From the IMG/VR virus record IMGVR_UViG_3300042934_000260, positions 1 through 44,106 of that record: a DNA stretch of 44,106 nucleotides; one strand, written 5' to 3'. Origin of the DNA: a virus. Shown here in pieces: positions 3,043 through 43,048 of this stretch (positions are counted from its first letter, which is position 1; each line of letters opens with the position of its first letter). A program made the translations under genes and the position numbers. The notes under the pieces were generated by a model, which did not search any database, was not told the origin of the DNA, and was given only the letters and a program-made list of their open reading frames with translations.

Positions 3043-4023
3043 ATGACTGATCACAACGAAGAAGTCGGCTCCCAGACCGACATTGAAACGCCAGACGTCG
3101 ACTCCCATATCGACGCATCGCAAGACGGCACGGCAGCAGCTGACCTTTCGTCCGTTCGCGAAATGTTTGGGTTGCCGGCAGTCGAGACAGCAGAAGAGCC
3201 GGATGACCAGCCTGCAGATGATGCGGGTTTGGATGATGAAGCCGCTCCTGAAGACGAGGAGATCGAAGAGGCGCCGCGAGATAAGAATGGGCGCTATGTG
3301 AAATTCAATAAAGAAGACACGTTCGTTCCGGAAGAGGAGTACGACCCGCTTCTTCGCAAAGGCCTGAACTACGACAAGGTTGAAGGCCGGGCTAAAACGT
3401 ACGAGTCAGCACTGGAACGTGTGGCAAAGCTCAGCGGCTACAAAGATCACGCGGACATGCTGGCTAACCTGGACCAGATCGAGCAGCAGCGTACACAGCA
3501 AGAGATCGACGGCTTCGAGACGGTAAAGAATCAGCTTCGCGAACAAGCGAATGACGGGTATCTGGACGCAGATTCCGTTGAGCAGTTTATCAAGCGGACC
3601 GAGGAAGCCATCCAGTACAAAGAGTCGGAACGGCAGCGGAAAGAACAGGAGACACGGGCGCAGCAGGAAACAGAAGGCTGGAACAAGCTTTTCGCCAAAT
3701 ACCCTGATCTTGCATCTCAAGTGCAGGATGAAGGAGACGGGAACATTAAGGCCGACTTCCTCAACCCCGACATGGTTGCACGCATTAGCCGCGGCTACGA
3801 CCCAATCGATGCGTACGAACTGGTCCATCGCGACAATCTTGCGACCGAAGCCAAGAAGAAGACCGAACAGCAGATCCTCAAACAGCAGCGACTCAACAAA
3901 CGTGCCGCGGTCGAAACGACCAACAGCGCACCAAGAGAACCGGAAGTCCCAGCGCAACTCGCAGGGGCTTTTTCTATGTTCGGACTCGATCCGAATGCAG
4001 CTAAAAAATACGTGAAAAAGTGA
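3043..4023 (+). CDS. Scaffolding protein (acidic N-terminus, coiled-coil middle)
   Basis: 326 aa. D/E-rich N-terminal third and helical charged repeats. Sits between the portal and capsid genes. Confidence 0.6.
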   Translation: MTDHNEEVGSQTDIETPDVDSHIDASQDGTAAADLSSVREMFGLPAVETAEEPDDQPADDAGLDDEAAPEDEEIEEAPRDKNGRYVKFNKEDTFVPEEEYDPLLRKGLNYDKVEGRAKTYESALERVAKLSGYKDHADMLANLDQIEQQRTQQEIDGFETVKNQLREQANDGYLDADSVEQFIKRTEEAIQYKESERQRKEQETRAQQETEGWNKLFAKYPDLASQVQDEGDGNIKADFLNPDMVARISRGYDPIDAYELVHRDNLATEAKKKTEQQILKQQRLNKRAAVETTNSAPREPEVPAQLAGAFSMFGLDPNAAKKYVKK

Positions 4024-4033
4024 GGGAACCCAC

Positions 4034-4444
4034 ATGGCATTTGAATTCCACTACAACGACTTCGGCGCTCCACAGCGGCGCACGGACCACATCCTTGCAA
4101 CCAACGGCGAGGCATTCCAAAAGGGTGAAGCGGTAAAGATCGCAAGCGGACGGATTACAAAAGCCGGCCCTACTGACGCTATCTACGGGTTTACAAACCA
4201 AAAACTCGCGGCCGGTACGGATCAAAAGCTCGAAGTCGCGATTGCACGCGAAGGCGATTGGTTTGACGCGCCTTACACCGGCACAGCAGCAGTCGGATTC
4301 GTTATCGCGGCTAACGCTGTAGCCATCACGGCAGACGGTTTGTCGGTAGACGCAGCAACGGTAACGGGCGGCGCACTGACGGTCATTCTGATCGATACCA
4401 ATGGCAAAAAAGCACGTGTCAAAGTTTCCAAACGCCAAATTTAA
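4034..4444 (+). CDS. Putative head decoration/cement protein (DUF2190-like)
   Basis: 136 aa, Ala/Gly/Thr-rich beta-type sequence immediately upstream of the major capsid gene. The family assignment is from memory. Confidence 0.4.
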   Translation: MAFEFHYNDFGAPQRRTDHILATNGEAFQKGEAVKIASGRITKAGPTDAIYGFTNQKLAAGTDQKLEVAIAREGDWFDAPYTGTAAVGFVIAANAVAITADGLSVDAATVTGGALTVILIDTNGKKARVKVSKRQI

Positions 4445-11125: not shown

Positions 11126-11695
11126 ATGAAAACATCCGACATCATCGCCGAAGCCGACATTCTCGTCCCAAACAACGTTCCTTCTGCTAACAAGGTGGTA
11201 CAGCTCAATTCACTTGTGACCGATTTCTACAACGCCGTAAAGATCCCGAAAGTCGCAAAGTTCACCACGGTTGCAGGACAAGCGGATTACGCTCTCGGAA
11301 CAGACATACGCTCGAAGAACATCGACAAGGTACAGGTCGAGAACTTCCGGTACGCCAGCATCGAACGAGACGACTACCAGCCGACGCAGACGGGGTTTAT
11401 CTTTGACGACGACACTTCCACCCTGTCGCTCAATCCAGCGCCGTATGATGTTCTACCGGCGTTTGTGCGCTACCACAAGATCGCAACGTCGTTTGTCACG
11501 AGCGCGAACCTTGAAGCGGTCCCGGGCATCCCGAGTGAGTATCATTGGACGTTGGTGCCGGCACTGGCTGCTTATCTTGCCAAGACGCAAGACGATGGGA
11601 TCAAGGCCGCGAACTATGAAGCCGAGTACAAAGCCGCTTGGAATGTAGCGTCTCAAAACTACGTACAAGCGGCGTCGGGAGCTGATGCGCAGTGA
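11126..11695 (+). CDS. Head-to-tail adaptor-like protein (P22 gp4 / T7 gp11 position)
   Basis: RBS aaggaggg followed by ATG 11126, giving 189 aa. It immediately precedes the 476-aa hub-like gene and is a paralogue of 7522..8148. Confidence 0.5.
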   Translation: MKTSDIIAEADILVPNNVPSANKVVQLNSLVTDFYNAVKIPKVAKFTTVAGQADYALGTDIRSKNIDKVQVENFRYASIERDDYQPTQTGFIFDDDTSTLSLNPAPYDVLPAFVRYHKIATSFVTSANLEAVPGIPSEYHWTLVPALAAYLAKTQDDGIKAANYEAEYKAAWNVASQNYVQAASGADAQ

Positions 11696-22038: not shown

Positions 22039-22070
22039 AGCCCTACCCTTATTGGGTGGGGCTTGTTTCT
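22039..22070. terminator. Bidirectional terminator between convergent genes
   Basis: An A-run, then stem GCCCTACCC / GGGTGGGGC with loop ttatt, then a T-rich run. Confidence 0.7.
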
Positions 22071-22488
22071 ATTTCAATCCATCAATTGCTTTAGCTTCAT
22101 TCCAAAGCTGATAAGGAGAAATAGCGCCTGCTAAGTATTTGTTCACGGATATATACGCGATTGCTTGTCCGTCATACACAATAACCGGAGGAGCATACGA
22201 ATAAGGGTTGAAAGCACTACCGCTCATATACTTACTTCCATAAGTTCCGTACGGGTTCCAGATGCTGGTGGTCGAGTATTTGCTGCCATAATTTCCGTAC
22301 TTGTTGAAAATTGATTCCGAGTCGTATTTGTTTGTCGATAGAGTACCTAAGAACTCGGATCCATCATTCGAATAAACCTCGAATTCGGAAGACACCATCA
22401 CACTCGTTGCTGCTTCAGTTTGTGCAGGTGCCGCAAAACCAAAGGTTAACAAAACAACGAATAGAAGCAGAATAGATTTTTTGTTCAA
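22069..22488 (-). CDS. Secreted repeat protein (moron): signal peptide plus SxWNxYGxYGSKY repeats
   Basis: Signal peptide MNKKSILLLFVVLLTFGFAAPAQTEA|A. About 2.7 copies of a 16-aa repeat. RBS aaggaggtga precedes a TTG start. AT-rich. Confidence 0.7.
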   Translation of the reverse strand: MNKKSILLLFVVLLTFGFAAPAQTEAATSVMVSSEFEVYSNDGSEFLGTLSTNKYDSESIFNKYGNYGSKYSTTSIWNPYGTYGSKYMSGSAFNPYSYAPPVIVYDGQAIAYISVNKYLAGAISPYQLWNEAKAIDGLK

Positions 22489-22861: not shown

Positions 22862-24076
22862 TCACGAATCCTGCAAAATGGGCTCTTCAAAAGGCTTTTC
22901 CAGGATGTCTTTAAACGCCACGCGGATCTTCTCGTCGGCGTTTTTTTGCATGATTTTGGTCACGTGAGTATAGACCCGCAGAGTGGTTTTAGAATCCTCG
23001 TGTCCGATACGTTGCATGATCGTTTGCAGATCAACGCCCGCTTCGGCCAGCATGCTGACGTAGGTGTGTCGGAAGATGTACGGAGTGAATGTTTTAGTGA
23101 TCGCGGTATACTTCATTAGGCGCTGGAAGCGGCTCCTTAAATGATAGCTGTTATAAGGCCATCCGCTTTTACGCCTAAAGATGAATTGTGCTTCGTGCTC
23201 CGGTCGATGGGCTTTGTCGATCGCCTTCCATTTCTTAATGTAGGCATCGAGCATTTGCACGACAATTTCGTCGATGGTGAAAGACCGTATGCCTGCAGGT
23301 GTTTTGGGAGGGGTGAGCTCATATCGAAACATATTGAGTTTTTCGTGATAAATCGTTTTGGTGATTGATATTCTGTTTTCCTCCACAATGAGATCCTGGT
23401 ATTTAAGGGCGAACATTTCACCAGGACGCATACCGCTGAACATTTCAAGGAAGATCATTTCGAAGTCGCCTTCCAGCCCGTGATTCTTCGCAGCATCAAT
23501 GATCTGGTGCAGCTCATCCCGATTCAGGTATTCATCCTCAACGCTCGAGTTTTCAATGTCTTCGACCGTTACCGTACGCTTAGGCATCATGCTGCCCAAT
23601 GCAGGGTTGTCCAACAGGACCTTGTTTCGAATGCCGTATTTGAAAACCATGTTAGCCGTGGCATGGGTCTGCTCGATCGTGCTGCGTGAGTATCCTTCAT
23701 CATCCATCTTGTTCAATGCCTTCTGGTGCACGTTGTGTGTAATGCGCGATATAGGCATCTTGCCGTAGTAGTTATTGAGGAATCTCAAGAAATGCCGCCG
23801 CAGCCGCAAGGTGTTCCGCTTGACTCCGCTTTTCGAATAGGTCTCGTACCATTCCCATCCCACTTCTTCGAACGTGATCCGATCGGCCTGCTTTTCGTGG
23901 ATGCCCTTACTAAGCAGCGCAATGGCCGTATCTACATTAGCCTCGGCTTCCCGCTTCGTATCTGCGCGCCGGCGCACTTGCTTACGTTTGCCGGTTGCCG
24001 AATCAAGCGGTCCGTCCTTCACACACTCCCACTTATAACCCTGCTTGTTCTTGGCAGCGACCTTCTTGAACGCCAT
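22862..24076 (-). CDS. int: Tyrosine integrase (site-specific recombinase, phage integrase family)
   Basis: C-terminal catalytic signature FRHTYVSMLAEAG...IGHEDSKTTLRVYTHV and an upstream GMRPGE Arg. The probable start is ATG 24076 (MAFKKV...) with RBS gggaga. Confidence 0.9.
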   Translation of the reverse strand: MAFKKVAAKNKQGYKWECVKDGPLDSATGKRKQVRRRADTKREAEANVDTAIALLSKGIHEKQADRITFEEVGWEWYETYSKSGVKRNTLRLRRHFLRFLNNYYGKMPISRITHNVHQKALNKMDDEGYSRSTIEQTHATANMVFKYGIRNKVLLDNPALGSMMPKRTVTVEDIENSSVEDEYLNRDELHQIIDAAKNHGLEGDFEMIFLEMFSGMRPGEMFALKYQDLIVEENRISITKTIYHEKLNMFRYELTPPKTPAGIRSFTIDEIVVQMLDAYIKKWKAIDKAHRPEHEAQFIFRRKSGWPYNSYHLRSRFQRLMKYTAITKTFTPYIFRHTYVSMLAEAGVDLQTIMQRIGHEDSKTTLRVYTHVTKIMQKNADEKIRVAFKDILEKPFEEPILQDS

Positions 24077-24551
24077 TTCCCATTCTCCCTTCATATAAAT
24101 GTCCACGCGCTTGAATCATTTCGACCCTTCGTGCAGCAACGTCGATCGGTAGCGCAAAAGTTTCCGCCAACAACCATGTGTATTCCATCCACGTCCTCTG
24201 TGGAGCCGGCAGGAGCGCGTAGGGCATCGCTGCGACAAGCTGGAAGCGTCTGGCCTGCCACTCTTGGTATTGCACCATAAGCGGGTGTAAGCCACGCTGT
24301 CGGCCGTCATGCAAGGCGATGTGTCCAAGCTCGTGATAAAAGTCTGCACGCTGCTGCTCCGGGCTAGTCCTGTTGTCCAGCGAAACAATTCGAAAACCTG
24401 CAGCCCAATAAGAGAATGCTGGAAGCGCGTTGTAAATGACCTGAATGCCCCAAATCGCCGCAATCAAGTGAAAATCAAGGTAGAATCCGTGTTCGGCGTA
24501 TACGTCGCAGATCCAAACATCCGCGACCGTCGGCTGGTAACCTTGCAGCAT
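24033..24551 (-). CDS. immA: ImmA/IrrE-family zinc metallopeptidase (anti-repressor protease)
   Basis: HEXXH motif in FYHELGHIALHD. About 170 aa, directly downstream of the XRE repressor, as in ImmR/ImmA modules. Confidence 0.8.
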   Translation of the reverse strand: MLQGYQPTVADVWICDVYAEHGFYLDFHLIAAIWGIQVIYNALPAFSYWAAGFRIVSLDNRTSPEQQRADFYHELGHIALHDGRQRGLHPLMVQYQEWQARRFQLVAAMPYALLPAPQRTWMEYTWLLAETFALPIDVAARRVEMIQARGHLYEGRMGNGVQEGRCQEQAGL

Positions 24552-25334: not shown

Positions 25335-25637
25335 ATGATCGAAATCAAACTCGACTCCACGCAAATCGAAGAAATGGTCGCTACCGTCGCCGAACGAGTC
25401 ATCGCAAAGCAGCAAGAACAACAACATCACCTGCCGATCGTGCTCAGCAAAGAACGCTTGTGTGAGGAACTGGACATCAGCACATCGACGGCGACGACGT
25501 TATTCCGACGAGCTGACTTCCCGGTAGCTAGAAATCTAGGTGGTCCGAAAGTGGTCACACATCTGCTGCTCCAATGGCTGGAACGCGAGGCTGGATGGGT
25601 AGAGAAAAACGCAGGGCCGAAACGGAGGTTAGGCTGA
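25335..25637 (+). CDS. HTH DNA-binding protein (excisionase/MerR-like fold; possible Xis)
   Basis: The segment LSKERLCEELDISTSTATTLFRRADFPV is typical of small phage HTH_17-type proteins. Confidence 0.5.
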   Translation: MIEIKLDSTQIEEMVATVAERVIAKQQEQQHHLPIVLSKERLCEELDISTSTATTLFRRADFPVARNLGGPKVVTHLLLQWLEREAGWVEKNAGPKRRLG

Positions 25638-29143: not shown

Positions 29144-29977
29144 ATGGATTACTTAGAGCAAGTGGTGGCCTTCCATCAATGGAAGGAAGTGAACCCCTTG
29201 CCTGCCAGCGCAATTGCATTATGGCATGAATTGATGGCCGTTTGTAATAAGGCTGGGTGGCCGGAGGAATTTACAGTAAAAAGCGCCCTGCTCCAAGCGA
29301 ATGCGGGCTTGAGTCGAAAAGAGTTCGACCGAGCCAGACAGATCCTGACCGACCTCGGACGGATCGGTTACAAGAAGTCCGGTCGAGTGAATATGGCTGG
29401 CAAATACTCCGTTATTCCATTCCCGATTGTTCAAAAGGGACAACAGGAGGGACAACGAGAGGGACATCGAACGGAACACAGGAGGGACAACAGGAGGGAC
29501 AACTATAAAGATCTTAAAGAACTTAAAGATCTTAAAAGCTCTTCTTCTGCATCTTCTGCTGGGGACGGCGTCGAATCCTTGACAACCGAAAAGCCTGAGA
29601 CTTTATACCAAGCCCATGAACGGGTGTTTGGATTCGGGTTTAGCAATCCCATGCAAGCACAGCGTCTAGGGAGCTACCTGGACGACGGGATGGAAGAAGC
29701 GGTGCTGATCCGGGCTTTGGAACGGGCGGCACTGGCTTCAACCGGGTATAGCTTCCCGTTAATCGACCGGATCGTGAAGGATTACTTTGCGGTTGGGGCG
29801 ATGGACATTGAGTCTGCCAAAGCACTGGACGCGGCACACGATGCCCAGAAGCAGCAGAAGGTGCAACAGCAAACTAGCAGGCCGGCCAGTGGCGGTAACC
29901 GGCAGCAGAAGTCATTGAGCCTGCTAGAACAAATGGCAGAGGAGGAACGGAAACGTGAACAAGTCACAGACGATTAA
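29144..29977 (+). CDS. Replisome organiser / DnaD-domain replication initiation protein
   Basis: The N-terminal winged-helix-like region is WHELMAVCNKAGWPEEF...LTDLGRIGY. A C-terminal DnaD-like repeat follows (GMEEAVLIRALERAAL...). Upstream of the helicase loader and DnaB. Confidence 0.7.
   Translation: MDYLEQVVAFHQWKEVNPLPASAIALWHELMAVCNKAGWPEEFTVKSALLQANAGLSRKEFDRARQILTDLGRIGYKKSGRVNMAGKYSVIPFPIVQKGQQEGQREGHRTEHRRDNRRDNYKDLKELKDLKSSSSASSAGDGVESLTTEKPETLYQAHERVFGFGFSNPMQAQRLGSYLDDGMEEAVLIRALERAALASTGYSFPLIDRIVKDYFAVGAMDIESAKALDAAHDAQKQQKVQQQTSRPASGGNRQQKSLSLLEQMAEEERKREQVTDD
29437..29540 (+). repeat. Iteron array plus AT-rich 9-bp repeats (candidate origin)
   Basis: Six units of about 12 bp start at 29437, 29449, 29461, 29473, 29484 and 29496. 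Four are perfect GGGACAAC. Three copies of CTTAAA(A)G follow at 29513, 29522 and 29531. Confidence 0.6.
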
Positions 29978-38842: not shown

Positions 38843-39237
38843 GCATCGATGACCAAAACAACCATCCGCTGTACAAGAGCGCACATGATCGCTTTATGCG
38901 GGCCGAGGAGCAGCAGAACATCAAGGCGGCTACTAAGTATCCCGAGCCACTGAATCCGGCGTCATGGAGCGCTGAGGAGCTGGGTGACCACTATGCGCAG
39001 GAGTCGGTGGATCAAGGGCGGTATGTGGAGGCGTTAGTGGCGAAGTGCCGCAGGTTGGTGGATGATATCGATCAAATACAAGAGTTAATCGAAGAATCGA
39101 TTGTGCATGCTGGACGAATAAAATTCGCTTCATACGATGGTACTCCTATGCAACGCGAGGCTGAGCGAACATGTGATGTTCTGAATGTCGTGCTGAGAAA
39201 GATTCGGGAAACACAAAAGGGAGCTGAAACGAAATGA
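38839..39237 (+). CDS. Hypothetical protein (132 aa)
   Basis: RBS gaggagg lies 7 nt before ATG 38839. ATGA overlap. Confidence 0.5.
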   Translation: MSIDDQNNHPLYKSAHDRFMRAEEQQNIKAATKYPEPLNPASWSAEELGDHYAQESVDQGRYVEALVAKCRRLVDDIDQIQELIEESIVHAGRIKFASYDGTPMQREAERTCDVLNVVLRKIRETQKGAETK

Positions 39238-39638
39238 GCATCGTACACAAGCAGATCAGCCCGGTCGGGCCAACAGGGATTGAGCGGGAGACTTGGGATA
39301 CGTACCGGTTAATGCGGCATCTGGAGCTGATTGGGCCGGATAAGCATCTGGGCGAGCACAAACCCGGCGTGTGGTTCGCATCGTCGGACGAGCGCAAGGA
39401 GTACAAGCGGAAAGTGGACCAGACCGTTTTTGTGAAAACGGAGTACGGCGAAGCGCTGCGAGAAGTGCCCGGACATCGGCATTACTACGCGACCGAAGAC
39501 GGCGACATTTACTCGGGACGGTCGGGGAAGCTCAAAAAGATGAAGCTGCACAACGGCAAGTATGTATCGATCATGGGCAGACAAGGCAATCAGGTCAATG
39601 TGTCGGCGATCACGCTGACGAATATGGCGTGGGAATGA
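39234..39638 (+). CDS. Hypothetical protein with NUMOD4-like C-terminal motif
   Basis: ATGA overlap. EVPGHRHYYATEDGDIYSGRSGKLKKMKLHNGKYVSI resembles NUMOD4 modules. No HNH motif seen. Confidence 0.4.
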   Translation: MSIVHKQISPVGPTGIERETWDTYRLMRHLELIGPDKHLGEHKPGVWFASSDERKEYKRKVDQTVFVKTEYGEALREVPGHRHYYATEDGDIYSGRSGKLKKMKLHNGKYVSIMGRQGNQVNVSAITLTNMAWE

Positions 39639-39958
39639 TGATACCTGATTGGTGGATCGGGCCTGCTATGATTGCGTGCATTGCAATTATCGTTTTGTGT
39701 GAACTTTTCGGTCCAAGCTCGTCATCTGAAGCGGATCTAAAAAGGATGGATAGACTTCAAGAAAAGCTGCAAGAAGCCGATCGCAAACTTCAGCAACTGA
39801 ACACTAAACCAAGCTCGGAAAATTACATCAAAAACACTGGGAAGTCCATTCTTTTCGAAGAGATGTGCGAGATGCACAAAAATAGGGAACTCAAGGATCT
39901 GAACGAGGAAGAGGACTTTATCGACAAAATGCTGCGTGATGCCGGGAGTCGGGAATGA
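39635..39958 (+). CDS. Membrane-anchored coiled-coil protein (107 aa)
   Basis: ATGA overlap. The N-terminal TM segment is WWIGPAMIACIAIIVLCELF. Confidence 0.5.
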   Translation: MMIPDWWIGPAMIACIAIIVLCELFGPSSSSEADLKRMDRLQEKLQEADRKLQQLNTKPSSENYIKNTGKSILFEEMCEMHKNRELKDLNEEEDFIDKMLRDAGSRE

Positions 39959-39965
39959 AGACATA

Positions 39966-39998
39966 GAAAAACCCCGCAAGCTTGGCGGCCAGGCGGGG
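39966..39998 (-). terminator. Leftward-facing intrinsic terminator upstream of arpU
   Basis: The stem CCCCGC / GCGGGG is followed by a T-run only when read on the - strand (+ strand shows gaaaaa before the stem). Confidence 0.45.
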
Positions 39999-40074
39999 CG
40001 ATTGAGAGGGATCTCGCTTCTATTATAACACGAGGGTGGGGATCTGAGTGGGTAATCAGGCGAGAGTGGAGCAG

Positions 40075-40497
40075 ATGTCGTTTAAGGTTTCGGAGATTGA
40101 CCACTACAAGACCCGCGAGCGCGTCGAAGAGTACATTGACACCGCACTCGCGATGCGCGATACCGACGGCGTGCGAAAAGAGACTGCGATGACCCCAAAC
40201 TATGCGCCGCGCGACTACACGAGCAACGCGCAGACGGGCAAGCCGGTGGAGGATGCTGCAATCGCCAATGTGGAGGCGGATGCGATGCGGCAGCACTGGA
40301 TTATGCTCCAGCGAGCGTTGTTGGTCTTGCGTCCCGAGGAGCGTAGACTCATTGAGCTGCGGTACTTGGGTGAGGACACGCTGTACGATTATCAAGTGTA
40401 TAACCAGATGGGGATGAGTGACCGGACGTACAAACGTCTTAAAAACAAGGCGATCAAGCGGCTGGCGATTAAACTTAACATTGAGGTTTGGAAATAA
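40075..40497 (+). CDS. arpU: ArpU-family late transcriptional regulator (sigma region-4-like)
   Basis: The C-terminus LRPEERRLIELRYLGED...MGMSDRTYKRLKNKAIKRLA is characteristic. Last regulatory gene before the packaging genes. An alternative start is GTG 40048. Confidence 0.75.
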   Translation: MSFKVSEIDHYKTRERVEEYIDTALAMRDTDGVRKETAMTPNYAPRDYTSNAQTGKPVEDAAIANVEADAMRQHWIMLQRALLVLRPEERRLIELRYLGEDTLYDYQVYNQMGMSDRTYKRLKNKAIKRLAIKLNIEVWK

Positions 40498-40540
40498 ATA
40501 AAGCCCGCTCAGGAGAGATCCTGTGGCGGGCTTTATTGTT
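40497..40540. terminator. Strong bidirectional terminator between arpU and the reverse operon
   Basis: Long hairpin AAGCCCGC...GCGGGCTT with an inner CAGGA/TCCTG stem. An A-run lies upstream and a T-run downstream. Confidence 0.8.
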
Positions 40541-40546
40541 ATACCA

Positions 40547-40804
40547 TTATTGATTGTTTCGGATAGTTTTCATATGTTCCGCAAACTCGTCATAAGAACC
40601 CCAGAACAGTTCTCCGTATCCGAACTTTTTAATGATTACGACATCGAATTTAATCCAATCATCCTTTTGGTTATCGATAAATCGTTCGGCCCATTCATAA
40701 GCTTCGAGGTCTGTTTCATAGTTCCGTGGGCATTCCAGCACTCCGCCGACGCCTTGACCCTCGCGCCGTTGTTTTTTTGCGAATCCGATATCATAAGTTA
40801 CCAT
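40547..40804 (-). CDS. Hypothetical 85-aa protein (third gene of the reverse operon)
   Basis: RBS aggagg lies 7 nt before the ATG. No family recognised. AT-rich. Confidence 0.6.
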   Translation of the reverse strand: MVTYDIGFAKKQRREGQGVGGVLECPRNYETDLEAYEWAERFIDNQKDDWIKFDVVIIKKFGYGELFWGSYDEFAEHMKTIRNNQ

Positions 40805-40835
40805 GTGATTTCCTCCTGCGTTTAAAGCCCGTCGG

Positions 40836-40997
40836 CTATTGTTTGAGTACGCTTGCCTTTACGATTAACCACGTGTTCTTTTTCCCGATCCTCGCTTCGT
40901 AGATGCCAGATTTGCAGCGTCTTTGAATCGTTTTGGCTGTATCGCCGGTGAGCTCTACAGCTTCTTCGACGGTTATGACTTCTTCAAGTATATTCAT
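40836..40997 (-). CDS. 53-aa HTH DNA-binding protein (not in the ORF track)
   Basis: RBS aaggag lies 8 nt before the ATG. MNILEEVITVEEAVELTGDTAKTIQRRCKSGIYEARIGKKNTWLI is an Xis/MerR-like HTH. Confidence 0.6.
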   Translation of the reverse strand: MNILEEVITVEEAVELTGDTAKTIQRRCKSGIYEARIGKKNTWLIVKASVLKQ

Positions 40998-41009
40998 GGT
41001 GTTTGCTCC

Positions 41010-41366
41010 TTATGCTCCGATAATTTCCCATTCTTCCCCGGTAATGTCCCAGCCGGCGTTTTCTCCGGTGATCCAGTAGTAGTCCGAATCCATGTACAGC
41101 TTTTCGAGTGCTGTTTGCATGTCGTCATCTTCTGCGAACCCGGCATCAGTTGGCCGAACGACTTCATAAGTGAAATCTTCTATCCCCATTTCTCGAGCGG
41201 CAGCCAATGTGTGGTGACCGTCAAGCAAAACGTAAACGGCTTCGCCTTTAGTGTCTGTTCCGACTTGGGCAATTCTCAATTCCACTTCTCCATGCTGTTC
41301 GAGTTGGTGTTTCTTTTCTTCTACCACGTCTGTGTCAATGTGTCTTTGGCTGCTGATAATGTTCAT
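41010..41366 (-). CDS. ParB/Srx-fold (ParB-like nuclease domain) protein, 118 aa
   Basis: VYVLLDGHHTLAAAREMG matches the ParB N-terminal domain DGxHR-type motif. RBS gaggagga. First gene after the reverse promoter. Confidence 0.6.
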   Translation of the reverse strand: MNIISSQRHIDTDVVEEKKHQLEQHGEVELRIAQVGTDTKGEAVYVLLDGHHTLAAAREMGIEDFTYEVVRPTDAGFAEDDDMQTALEKLYMDSDYYWITGENAGWDITGEEWEIIGA

Positions 41367-41383
41367 TTTATTTCCTCCTCGTT

Positions 41384-41440
41384 TGTCGCAATCGCGACTT
41401 CTTATGAGTCAAATATAGCATGTCGCAATCACGACGTCAA
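41384..41440 (-). promoter_or_regulatory. Near-consensus leftward promoter with two operator palindromes
   Basis: On the - strand: TTGACG (41440-41435), a 17-nt spacer, then TATATT (41417-41412). TGTCGCAATC(G/A)CGAC occurs twice on the + strand (41384-41398 and 41421-41435), once in the spacer and once in the 5' UTR. Confidence 0.7.
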
Positions 41441-41510
41441 CAGGTATTTTAAAAGTTTTTACGCGGCCCCTTTTATGGCCTAAAGTTGGCCTATTTATTC
41501 CGCACAACTG

Positions 41511-41519
41511 TGCTAAAAT
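41511..41519 (+). promoter_or_regulatory. Extended -10 promoter (TGcTAAAAT) for the tRNA-like RNA
   Basis: TG at 41511-41512 and TAAAAT at 41514-41519. No good -35. Confidence 0.45.
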
Positions 41520-41588
41520 GGTAGTAGGTAAAGAGCGGGCACCGACGGCGGCACGCCCCCACGCGCTGGACGGTGCTTGTGTTTATAT

Positions 41589-41646
41589 GTCTCGGTAGCT
41601 CAGTCGGTAGAGCCGTGGTGCGCTGGTTCAATTCCAGTTCGAGGCA
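41589..41646 (+). ncRNA. 58-nt tRNA-like RNA lacking an anticodon arm
   Basis: The acceptor is GTCTCGG / TCGAGGC with discriminator A. The D arm is GCTC-AGTCGGTA-GAGC and the T arm is GCTGG-TTCAATT-CCAGT. Only 8 nt (CGTGGTGC) sit where the 17-nt anticodon arm and variable loop should be. Confidence 0.6.
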
Positions 41647-41660
41647 TTGTTTCCTCCGTT

Positions 41661-41680
41661 GACCCTTCGGGGTCTTTTTT
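41661..41680 (+). terminator. Rho-independent terminator after the tRNA-like RNA
   Basis: Stem GACCC / GGGTC, loop TTCG, then T6. Confidence 0.8.
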
Positions 41681-41698
41681 ATTTGATTTGAAAGGGTG

Positions 41699-41938
41699 AT
41701 GAACATGTATAAGAAGACACCGGAAGAACAAAAGGCAACGCTGGATCGTAGTCTGACGAATATCAAGCCGAGCGAAGACGCAATCGAGCGCATCGAGCAG
41801 TTGCGTGAAGCTGCTAAATCGTTGGGGCACCAGATCATCGACCTCTGTCCGGACAGCCGGGAGAAGTCGCTGGCACTGACGCACCTGGAAGAAACGGTAA
41901 TGTGGGGCGTTAAGTCGATCGTCTTGGAAAGCAATTAG
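41699..41938 (+). CDS. Small helical protein, possibly an Acb2-like nucleotide sponge (hypothesis)
   Basis: About 78 aa. IERIEQLREAAKSLGHQIIDLCPDSREKSLALTHLEETVMWGVKSIV fits the widespread phage motif CP..RE.SLA.T.LEE..MW. The family link is from memory. The start is ATG 41699 or 41705. Confidence 0.35.
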   Translation: MNMYKKTPEEQKATLDRSLTNIKPSEDAIERIEQLREAAKSLGHQIIDLCPDSREKSLALTHLEETVMWGVKSIVLESN

Positions 41939-41946
41939 GAAGGGTG

Positions 41947-42066
41947 ATGGGTGTGACATTCAGTGCCAATCTTGGTGGATGGGGAATTATTATCGCCTAC
42001 ACAATGTTTTGCTTGCTAGTTGGATATTGCGTCGGAGAATGGAAAGCGAAAAGAGGTGTGAAATGA
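41947..42066 (+). CDS. 39-aa single-TM mini-protein (not in the ORF track)
   Basis: RBS aggaaggg. MGVTFSANLGGWGIIIAYTMFCLLVGYCVGEWKAKRGVK. ATGA overlap with the next gene. Confidence 0.45.
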   Translation: MGVTFSANLGGWGIIIAYTMFCLLVGYCVGEWKAKRGVK

Positions 42067-42428
42067 AACTCCACACAGACGGAACCATCGAGGGAACGCC
42101 GGAGGAAGTGGCGGCTTATAAGCGGGAGATGTATCCGGTGCTTGTAACGGAAGGGCGGATCAAACCGCCGGACTTCCCTTTGCCGGGAGTGAATGTACGT
42201 CCGTCGGAAGTGACTCATGCCATTTCACAAAGCACGATTGCGAGCACAGGGCAGAGCTTGAAGGAACCGTTCAGCTGGAACGAATGGACAGGTGTATTAG
42301 AAAAGATGGACCGCGTGCGAGCATTCAAGTTCCCTAAAAGGTGGCTTGAGCGCTATACGGTTCTTGAACTGCTAGAGGAAGTCGATAAACGCAAGAAAGT
42401 CGCAAGGGAAACTGGAATGTACTTGTAA
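42063..42428 (+). CDS. Hypothetical protein (121 aa from ATG 42063)
   Basis: In frame with track ORF 41979..42428 and coupled to the upstream mini-ORF. Confidence 0.5.
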   Translation: MKLHTDGTIEGTPEEVAAYKREMYPVLVTEGRIKPPDFPLPGVNVRPSEVTHAISQSTIASTGQSLKEPFSWNEWTGVLEKMDRVRAFKFPKRWLERYTVLELLEEVDKRKKVARETGMYL

Positions 42429-42514
42429 CCCCGCAAACTAAACCCCAAACGCGCAGGAGGTGACGCGGAGTAGGGTGAGCGGACGCATTATATAGAAGGA
42501 AAGGAGCTGCGGTG

Positions 42515-43048
42515 ATGGAGTTGACTCCTAAGCAGGAAATGTTCGTTAAAGAATACCTGGTGGATCTCAACGCCACACAGGCGGCTATCAGAGCGGGATA
42601 CAGTGAAAGGACGGCTCGTGCAATCGCGAATGAAAACTTGACAAAGCCTTACATTCAAGAGGCAATTCAGAAAGCAATGGACATCCGCTCTAAACGCGTA
42701 CAGATCACGGCTGATCGTGTGTTGGAAGAGTATGCACGTATTGCTTTCTTCGACCCGCGTAAGCTGTATAACGACGATGGCACGCCTGTAGACTTGTCGC
42801 AACTGGATGAGGACACGGCTCGTGCAGTCATCAACATTGATGTGTATGAAGAGTTTACGGGATTCGGTGAGAACCGCGAGCAGATCGGTGTGACGAAAAA
42901 GTATAAGGTCGCGGATAAGGTGCGGGCTTTGGATAGCTTGGCGAAGCATCTTGGCATCTTGACGGATAAGGTCGAAATGTCCGGCGCTGGAGGTGGCCCG
43001 ATGCAGGTTATCTTTGACGCTGGTATGCGGAAGAAGGATGAGGCATGA
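42515..43048 (+). CDS. terS: Terminase small subunit (Terminase_2 family)
   Basis: MELTPKQEMFVKEYLVDLNATQAAIRAGYSERTARAIANENLTKP is the classic family N-terminus. RBS aaaggag. Confidence 0.9.
   Translation: MELTPKQEMFVKEYLVDLNATQAAIRAGYSERTARAIANENLTKPYIQEAIQKAMDIRSKRVQITADRVLEEYARIAFFDPRKLYNDDGTPVDLSQLDEDTARAVINIDVYEEFTGFGENREQIGVTKKYKVADKVRALDSLAKHLGILTDKVEMSGAGGGPMQVIFDAGMRKKDEA

Follow-up and report, generated by a model that had tools for sequence, protein, structure and literature searches.

A three-gene operon on the reverse strand of a temperate phage genome carries an exchangeable cargo gene in its first position, behind a regulatory region that stays constant when the cargo changes. 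The genome is IMG/VR virus record IMGVR_UViG_3300042934_000260, analysed at its full length of 44,106 nucleotides (hereafter the window), and the operon (hereafter the cassette) occupies positions 40547–41440, between arpU, which encodes an ArpU-family late regulator, and the terminase gene terS. The three genes, designated A, B and C in order of transcription, encode proteins of 118, 53 and 85 amino acids (aa). The cassette is perhaps best understood as an autonomous, self-repressed accessory operon of the moron type, which would share its anatomy with acr-aca operons and carry a counter-defence protein or other early effector as cargo; confidence in this reading falls a little short of even.

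Anatomy of the cassette and its cargo slot

Gene A (41366–41010), gene B (40997–40836) and gene C (40804–40547) are open reading frames (ORFs) on the minus strand. ORFs were also predicted at all three positions by independent gene callers on two sister contigs, L003 and L002. Each gene is preceded by a strong ribosome-binding site, read from the sequence: GAGGAGG (41380–41374), 7 nt ahead of the first ATG, for gene A; AAGGAG (41011–41006), which overlaps the stop codon of gene A, for gene B; and AGGAGG (40817–40812) for gene C. The promoter (41440–41412, minus strand) consists of a -35 element, TTGACG (41440–41435), a 17-nt spacer and a -10 element, TATATT (41417–41412), located 45 nt upstream of the gene A ATG. 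It agrees with the consensus at 10/12 positions and contains an extended -10 element, TGcTATATT (41420–41412, with the TG at 41420–41419). The match alone is unexceptional, as six promoter-like sites of at least 10/12 are observed in the whole window against 5.4 expected. Sites of this quality that also carry the TG extension number three against 0.42 expected, and the cassette promoter is among them.

Two copies of a 14-bp putative operator are associated with this promoter. The first, O1 (41422–41435), is a near-palindrome with the coding-strand sequence GTCGTGATTGCGAC; it fills the spacer of the promoter and extends 1 nt into the -35 element. The second, O2 (41385–41398; GTCGCGATTGCGAC on the coding strand), is situated in the 5' untranslated region at about +8 to +21, just upstream of the ribosome-binding site, and can fold as a 5-bp mRNA hairpin (-10.3 kcal/mol, z -3.05). 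These two copies are the sole matches to the motif in the 44-kb window, and in shuffled sequence two similar 14-bp near-palindromes lay within 60 nt of each other in just 2/200 cases (mean 0.015). At the opposite end, the cassette shares a bidirectional intrinsic terminator with arpU, which is transcribed from the plus strand. This inverted repeat (40497–40537, both strands) forms hairpins of -30.4 and -25.4 kcal/mol on the two strands (z -7.1 and -5.9), each followed by a U-run. The window has just one more such pair of 14-bp near-palindromes, (A/T)TAAAGATCTTAAA, at 29505–29536 in the early region. Its copies are 18 nt apart inside a 277-aa ORF (29144–29977), and it may be an origin or iteron-like element.

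These predicted elements support the view of a block that is transcribed autonomously, with a promoter of the sigma-A type and a terminator of its own, and the layout of the operators probably fits self-repression by the small helix-turn-helix (HTH) protein of the operon itself. A first-pass annotation of the window had already described three reverse-strand genes with strong ribosome-binding sites, a near-consensus sigma-A-type promoter, operator copies in the spacer and the 5' untranslated region, a bidirectional terminator at the end of the operon and a position between arpU and terS, all of which are borne out. It had also called the block AT-rich, which is only modestly so (GC content of 0.44–0.48 against 0.50–0.57 in the flanks).

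The cassette was found on three contigs only, namely the window, L003 and L002. Over the part that it covers (~14.4 kb of the window), L003 is 100% identical to the window, while L002 derives from a mosaic relative of the window phage in which the packaging module differs. The window and L002 are homologous at 97.4% over 39226–41011 and at 96.8% over 41363–41711, and the gap between these segments corresponds exactly to the 118-aa ORF, in place of which L002 has an unrelated ORF of 127 aa. L002 keeps the promoter and both operators as well as the HTH gene and the 85-aa gene. Between the two contigs, gene B shows three synonymous differences and one non-synonymous difference, gene C is identical and O2 is identical; the promoter-proximal O1 copy is a perfect palindrome, GTCGCAATTGCGAC, in L002. 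Since the 118-aa ORF alone has been swapped and the rest kept, the first position is an exchangeable cargo slot behind a constant regulatory region. The earlier view of the three genes as one co-evolving trio is not supported by this comparison, and homologues of gene A elsewhere are accompanied by unrelated partners.

A further contig, L001, carries a homologue of gene A (66% identity) with a similar -10 element and 5' untranslated region. Both operators and the HTH gene are absent there, which indicates that operators and HTH gene go together, and a different, overlapping 69-aa gene follows. On this 6.8-kb contig the homologue and the 69-aa gene occupy positions 3595–4330 on the opposite strand, flanked by lysis genes and by a cro-like HTH_3 gene. 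This is the usual place of the lysogeny module; the contig shows neither an integrase nor CI. Searches with the DNA pattern of the operator pair gave no match in IMG/VR and a single locus in the JGI metagenomes (L015), which is an unrelated high-GC bacterial locus without homology to the window. Among GenBank phages there was no match to the DNA of the cassette region, nor any tblastn match to the 85-aa protein or the 127-aa protein of L002.

The gene B protein is basic (pI 8.9), and its best Pfam matches, HTH_59 (19.5 bits, E 1e-3) and HTH_17 (18.5 bits, E 2.4e-3), are all below the cut-off of 27 bits. PHROG excisionase and HTH families were matched at E 0.02–0.1 and the PADLOC model mad1 at E 0.026; searches of NCBIfam and the PDB returned nothing. 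From these concordant matches gene B probably encodes an HTH_17/excisionase-like HTH protein, which is presumed to be the autorepressor of the cassette. An HTH protein and likely autoregulator had already been called here in the first-pass annotation; the layout of the operators agrees with this, although every one of the matches is sub-threshold. No other relatives were present in the protein collection, where a word-indexed search returned the protein itself alone. The gene C protein is an acidic orphan for which a single-sequence model (pLDDT, the predicted local distance difference test, 76.7, confident for one sequence) predicts a beta-beta-alpha-beta-beta-alpha fold. The best match in a fold search was ERH (TM 0.4–0.5, E >0.02), which permits no assignment; profile libraries contained no matching family and a word-indexed search again returned the query alone, in keeping with the original description of a protein without a recognisable family. 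Scans of IMG/VR proteins with each of the three cassette proteins detected no relatives, the match in L004 being a 14-residue chance match.

In the favoured reading, host sigma-A RNA polymerase would fire the strong extended -10 promoter without any phage factor, and a dimer of the gene B protein would bind both 14-bp palindromes, in the spacer and in the 5' untranslated region, and so shut the promoter down. The outcome would be a burst of expression on entry of naive DNA followed by a low steady level, in the lysogen as well. The first position, shown by the swap in L002 to be a cargo slot, is filled here by a one-domain, highly acidic protein of the ParB/Srx fold from family phrog_4807, and the orphan 85-aa gene C might represent a second, constant cargo. 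Because other phages carry this domain on the C-termini of portal and MuF head proteins, the gene A protein would be a phage effector that works inside the host as infection begins, in counter-defence or host takeover.

In described acr-aca operons the promoter contains one or two inverted repeats, one of which is always inside the core promoter, and Aca proteins also control other anti-defence operons (PMC9410906, PMC13551039). The cassette resembles these operons in its strong host-type promoter with O1 inside the core and O2 in the 5' untranslated region, in the small, acidic, exchangeable cargo upstream of a conserved small regulator gene, and in its clustering with a gene of anti-defence type. 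The latter lies on the plus strand (41696–41938), ~330 bp from the cassette, directly after a tRNA-like RNA and ahead of terS; its 80-aa product contains the PF24729 hairpin domain (66 bits for a cut-off of 27, E 3.4e-18). PF24729 (Acb2/Tad1) is a family of anti-CBASS and anti-Thoeris sponges.

The gene A protein and its family

The gene A protein is strongly acidic (pI 4.2, net charge -19), comprises one domain and is a member of PHROG family phrog_4807, for which no function is on record. An AlphaFold2 model with the family alignment as input covers all 118 residues as a single domain, with a pLDDT of 94.8 and a predicted TM score (pTM) of 0.86. The leading Foldseek matches of this model in the PDB are sulfiredoxin (Srx), Noc, Atu1540, KorB, SerK, Spo0J and SbnI, all of them ParB/Srx proteins. 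Foldseek probabilities are 0.9–1.0 for Srx, Noc and Atu1540 and 0.2–0.8 for KorB, SerK, Spo0J and SbnI, with moderate scores (TM 0.33–0.51, E from 3e-3 to >1). A fold search of BFVD was also led by viral ParB/Srx proteins. At the level of sequence, the matches agree with one another but are weak. Those to ParB-type families of Pfam are below threshold (ParBc_2, 13.1 bits against a cut-off of 23.6), and 62 family members gave weak Pfam matches alone (ParBc_2 in 16/62, DUF1015 in 14/62 and ParB_N in 1/62). Nothing significant was found in a profile search of the PDB with the gene A family (SerK, E 0.23, through the DGHH motif) or in sequence searches of the PDB with all three cassette proteins. 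The modelled fold supports membership of the ParB/Srx superfamily, and the assignment is correct at that level. The first-pass annotation had made the same call, which stands at the level of the fold and fails at the sequence threshold.

The signature of phrog_4807 consists of ISSQR, K18, DGHH(T/R/S)xxAA and DxD(W/Y)Y, which are conserved across the family alignment, and residues at the ParB/Srx motif positions are conserved in the gene A protein. Like ParB, Spo0J, Noc and KorB, the protein has the fold of the N-terminal domain and box I-like (Q-x-R) and box II-like (G-x-x-x...AA..G) positions. Unlike them, it has neither the HTH DNA-binding domain nor the C-terminal dimerisation domain, neither of which was detected by Pfam or in the single-domain model. 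In place of the box II arginine pair of ParB the protein has His-His, which SerK, SbnI and ParBc_2 also show. Identity as a partition ParB was ruled out by the single domain, the charge of -19 and the His-His in place of the arginine pair. No ParA-like gene turned up among the ORFs of the window, for which no systematic screen was made. Since DNA-binding and dimerisation domains were not detected, nucleotide binding or hydrolysis, or binding of a host protein, seems the most likely activity of the modelled domain, and a role in DNA partition is unlikely.

An exhaustive profile search identified at least 91 cluster representatives of the gene A family, which are mostly proteins of ~100 aa. A word-indexed search with the 118-aa protein returned one homologue, and a locus search with an alignment of four sequences returned one Longimicrobiales locus (L008). 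The family domain also occurs in fusions. In P0015 it is attached to the C-terminus of a Phage_portal protein; its partner in P0092 is a MuF 'minor head protein and DNA pilot', and in P0085 a head-morphogenesis protein. Fusion to virion proteins in this way is a mark of effectors that enter the particle and are injected along with the DNA (Iyer et al. 2017, PMC5512222). Ahead of the fused domain there is a (D/S)(Q/H)PR(D/A)DDG(R/K)(W/F) motif and a Gly/Ser-rich linker (P0015 ~655–672; P0008 ~25–40), which may be a processing or linker signature of C-terminal cargo domains on head proteins.

ParB-CTPase/Srx and DdrB-like domains of phages measure ~100 aa, occur alone or on MuF and portal proteins, and are predicted to be early effectors that bind or hydrolyse nucleoside triphosphates (NTPs) (PMC5512222, PMC12704722). 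The gene A family resembles such single-domain ParB/DdrB-like proteins in its length, its ParB/Srx fold and its occurrence either solo or fused to virion proteins. It differs from the DdrB-like domains in a signature of its own (ISSQR, DGHH for the GERR of ParB, and DxDWY) and in its extreme acidity. Identity with polyvalent proteins' DdrB-like ParB domain was rejected, as hhalign against residues 1–400 of P1 DdrB gave a probability of 0.6%, and none of the Pfam families to which the 62 members gave matches is ddrB-ParB.

The genomic contexts of stand-alone members vary. In Salmonella phage SEN34 the member belongs to the early nin region and follows the O/P replication genes. Members on L001, L005, L011 and L014 adjoin lysis genes or a lysis cassette or sit at a prophage end, and that on L012 is located downstream of CI/ImmA-like genes in the same orientation. 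On L009 the member is the first gene of a three-gene operon on the opposite (reverse) strand. This operon possesses a TTGACA-17-TATACT promoter of its own and runs convergently with a small Sigma70_r4 gene; its third gene (L009_113) shows a weak match to RHH_1 (E 3e-3). A small gene closely follows the family member every time, and in L001 and L013 it overlaps the gene upstream. Because these downstream genes are mutually unrelated, except for the pair in L011 and L014, a conserved partner gene for the family was rejected. A ribbon-helix-helix (RHH) regulator as the common partner in L009, L011 and L014 was likewise dropped, the weak RHH_1 match being confined to L009_113. The homologues have no consistent link to terS.

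Weighing the function of the cassette

A function on the side of the phage is favoured because of the virion-protein fusions, the nin-region context in SEN34, the Acb2/Tad1-hairpin gene beside the cassette and the lack of any hit to known defence systems. PADLOC-DB 2.0 returned no hits for the cassette proteins (other than mad1 as given above), the cargo of L002, the partner genes or the homologues. Several points weigh against an acr-aca-like operon. No homology to known Acr, Aca or anti-defence families was seen in Pfam, PHROGs or NCBIfam, no dedicated search with Aca, dbAPIS or AntiDefenseFinder models having been made, and the regulator appears HTH_17/excisionase-like at best. This HTH assignment is itself sub-threshold and the operators are putative. 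Just two cargo variants are present on the three contigs. The regulator is placed mid-operon with the constant 85-aa gene behind it, unlike the usual order of acr then aca. Finally, the members on L012 and on L001, L005, L011 and L014 occupy places of lysogenic conversion, which fit a role in the lysogen equally well.

The last of these points leads to an explanation close to that of the first-pass annotation, which had suggested defence or exclusion. The cassette would be a constitutive prophage operon, expressed at an autoregulated level, whose product or products block incoming phages. Its orientation opposite to the lytic genes, its own sigma-A promoter and terminator and its lower GC content form the classic signature of a moron, and negative autoregulation would suit steady expression in the lysogen. 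The homologues beside lysis genes or at prophage ends, and the one on L012 in line with CI/ImmA-like lysogeny genes, are consistent with the same role. However, PADLOC matched neither the cassette proteins nor the L002 cargo nor the partner genes of the homologues, the portal and MuF fusions and the early nin position in SEN34 point to a function in the lytic cycle rather than to protection of the lysogen, and the adjoining Acb2/Tad1-like gene is of the anti-defence type. There is no positive evidence for defence or exclusion, and a phage-side effector or counter-defence protein is preferred on these grounds; lysogen-expressed defence is retained as a somewhat unlikely explanation, because orientation and several of the homologue contexts fit expression in the lysogen equally well.

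The order of the genes also recalls toxin-antitoxin or toxin-immunity pairs, a character that had likewise been proposed earlier. Toxin-first operons of type II are autoregulated through palindromes in their promoters, and the gene A protein could by analogy be an NTPase toxin of the ParB fold that is neutralised by the product of gene B, in the manner of higBA, or of gene C. In ToxB, a ParB-CTPase fold is reported to function as an ATPase toxin whose immunity protein is encoded next to it (bioRxiv 10.64898/2026.05.05.722872), and C-terminal fusions to MuF are typical of polymorphic toxins (PMC5512222). Likened by description only, ToxB, of contact-dependent inhibition, and the gene A family are both small ParB-fold modules without DNA binding, C-terminal on a larger carrier in the fusions, with a small adjacent partner gene, and a small gene does always follow the family members closely, with overlap in L001 and L013. 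In L002, however, the putative toxin has been replaced while the 53-aa protein (one substitution) and the 85-aa protein (identical) are kept. This weakens the comparison, because a cognate neutraliser should not survive replacement of its toxin, and in the same respect the cassette is unlike ToxB with its cognate immunity protein. In addition, the 53-aa protein has room for an HTH only and none for a toxin-binding region, and the downstream partners of the homologues are mutually unrelated apart from those of L011 and L014. A toxin-antitoxin system is improbable on this evidence.

The position between arpU and terS raises the question of a helper in phage DNA handling, in which gene A would encode a ParB-like nuclease or NTPase for packaging, replication or partition and gene B an excisionase-like factor. 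ParB-like nucleases and HNH proteins often adjoin terminase genes. The SEN34 homologue follows O/P replication genes, and the weak matches of gene B to excisionase PHROGs might be taken to agree with such a role. However, a host-type promoter drives the cassette in the direction opposite to the late operon, L002 shows gene A to be both dispensable and replaceable, and its homologues are not consistently linked to terS. The missing DNA-binding and dimerisation domains and the charge of -19 are further arguments against it, as are the confinement of the operators to the cassette's own promoter and the presence of a better Xis candidate at 25335–25637, near the lysogeny module. Help in DNA handling is very improbable as a whole, and packaging, partition and excision are each unlikely as roles of the cassette.

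The acr-aca-like operon with effector cargo therefore remains the preferred reading, and it can be extended to the family as a whole. In this extended form, minimal phage effectors of the ParB/Srx fold would constitute a new class, phrog_4807. Either injected as a tail of portal or MuF proteins or produced by a self-repressed Aca-like operon in an immediate-early burst, they would disarm host immunity by binding or hydrolysing nucleotides (an immune signal or the NTP pool) or by nucleic-acid mimicry, as the charge of -19 might suggest. Gene B would in that case be the first member of a new family of Aca-like regulators, with the 85-aa and 127-aa proteins as additional anti-defence proteins. 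So far-reaching a proposal is unlikely to hold in full. None of the cassette proteins matches a described system, as had been stated in the first-pass annotation. If the acr-aca-like reading is true, the cassette provides a new regulator-operator pair for guilt-by-association searches of anti-defence genes in Paenibacillaceae-type phages, together with three uncharacterised candidate effectors of 118, 85 and 127 aa. If it is merely a moron of lysogenic conversion, the finding is an ordinary one. In either case, a single-domain ParB/Srx family of at least 91 cluster representatives, already present on virion proteins, is without an assigned function.

The host phage and the neighbourhood of the cassette

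The window represents a complete, circularly permuted genome (44.1 kb) of a temperate phage of a Bacillota host. The host is likely Paenibacillaceae-like, as the nearest genomic homologue of the 118-aa gene A sits in Saccharibacillus brassicae. Cultured phages are distant, the top match of the portal protein being Bacillus phage PK1 at 26% identity. A lysogeny module on the minus strand at ~22.0–25.0 kb comprises an integrase-like ORF, an ImmA-like Peptidase_M78 protein and a CI-like XRE repressor. The integrase-like ORF (414 aa, 22862–24106, minus strand) reads as a putative tyrosine integrase. Apart from this module and the cassette, the genome reads rightwards, up to the ArpU-family late regulator. 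The gene for this regulator (arpU, 40048–40497, plus strand) is identified by TIGR01637 (76.8 bits against a cut-off of 43.1), and terS (42512–43048, rightward) by Terminase_2 (E 6.6e-44).

The region between arpU and terS is a mosaic in which each swap is about one gene long. L002 carries an unrelated 69-aa ORF in the slot of the acb2-like gene. Between the acb2-like gene and terS, the window has a 149-aa ORF (41979–42428, plus strand) whose N-terminal ~60 residues recur in a 126-aa ORF of L002 (8488–8868), after which the two diverge. Elsewhere, a 139-aa ORF (22069–22488, minus strand) between the holin gene and the ORF at 22862–24106 has an N-terminal segment resembling a signal peptide and no family match. 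Two TG-extended promoter-like sites (22545 and 22741) lie near it on the opposite (plus) strand. This ORF may represent a second moron.

The tRNA-like RNA that precedes the acb2-like gene is a 58-nt element on the plus strand (41589–41646), followed by a terminator at 41661–41674. It scores 38.4 bits with the Rfam tRNA model and is not called as a tRNA by ARAGORN. The predicted structure has a 7-bp acceptor stem, a D-arm, a variable loop and a T-arm, and the anticodon arm is replaced by 2–3 nt. The element is also present in L002, and a search of IMG/VR with a pattern of its architecture, from which the acceptor stem was excluded, identified 41 viral contigs (L017–L057) with 34 distinct sequences. 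Among these the acceptor stem covaries at 7/7 pairs. Standard pairs fill 95.2% of the acceptor cells against 71.8% in shuffles, and the covariation score of 0.615 compares with 0.141 in shuffles (0/500 reach the observed value) and ~0.1 in slid controls. Some of the copies lie within phage tRNA clusters, and ARAGORN calls none of them. A text search of the literature found no description of a tRNA-like class without an anticodon arm. The RNA could be a decoy or substrate for enzymes that read the acceptor end or the elbow of tRNA. On one of the contigs (L035), ARAGORN predicts a permuted transfer-messenger RNA at 11162–11575, the 3' end of which overlaps the start of the tRNA-like element at 11561–11618.

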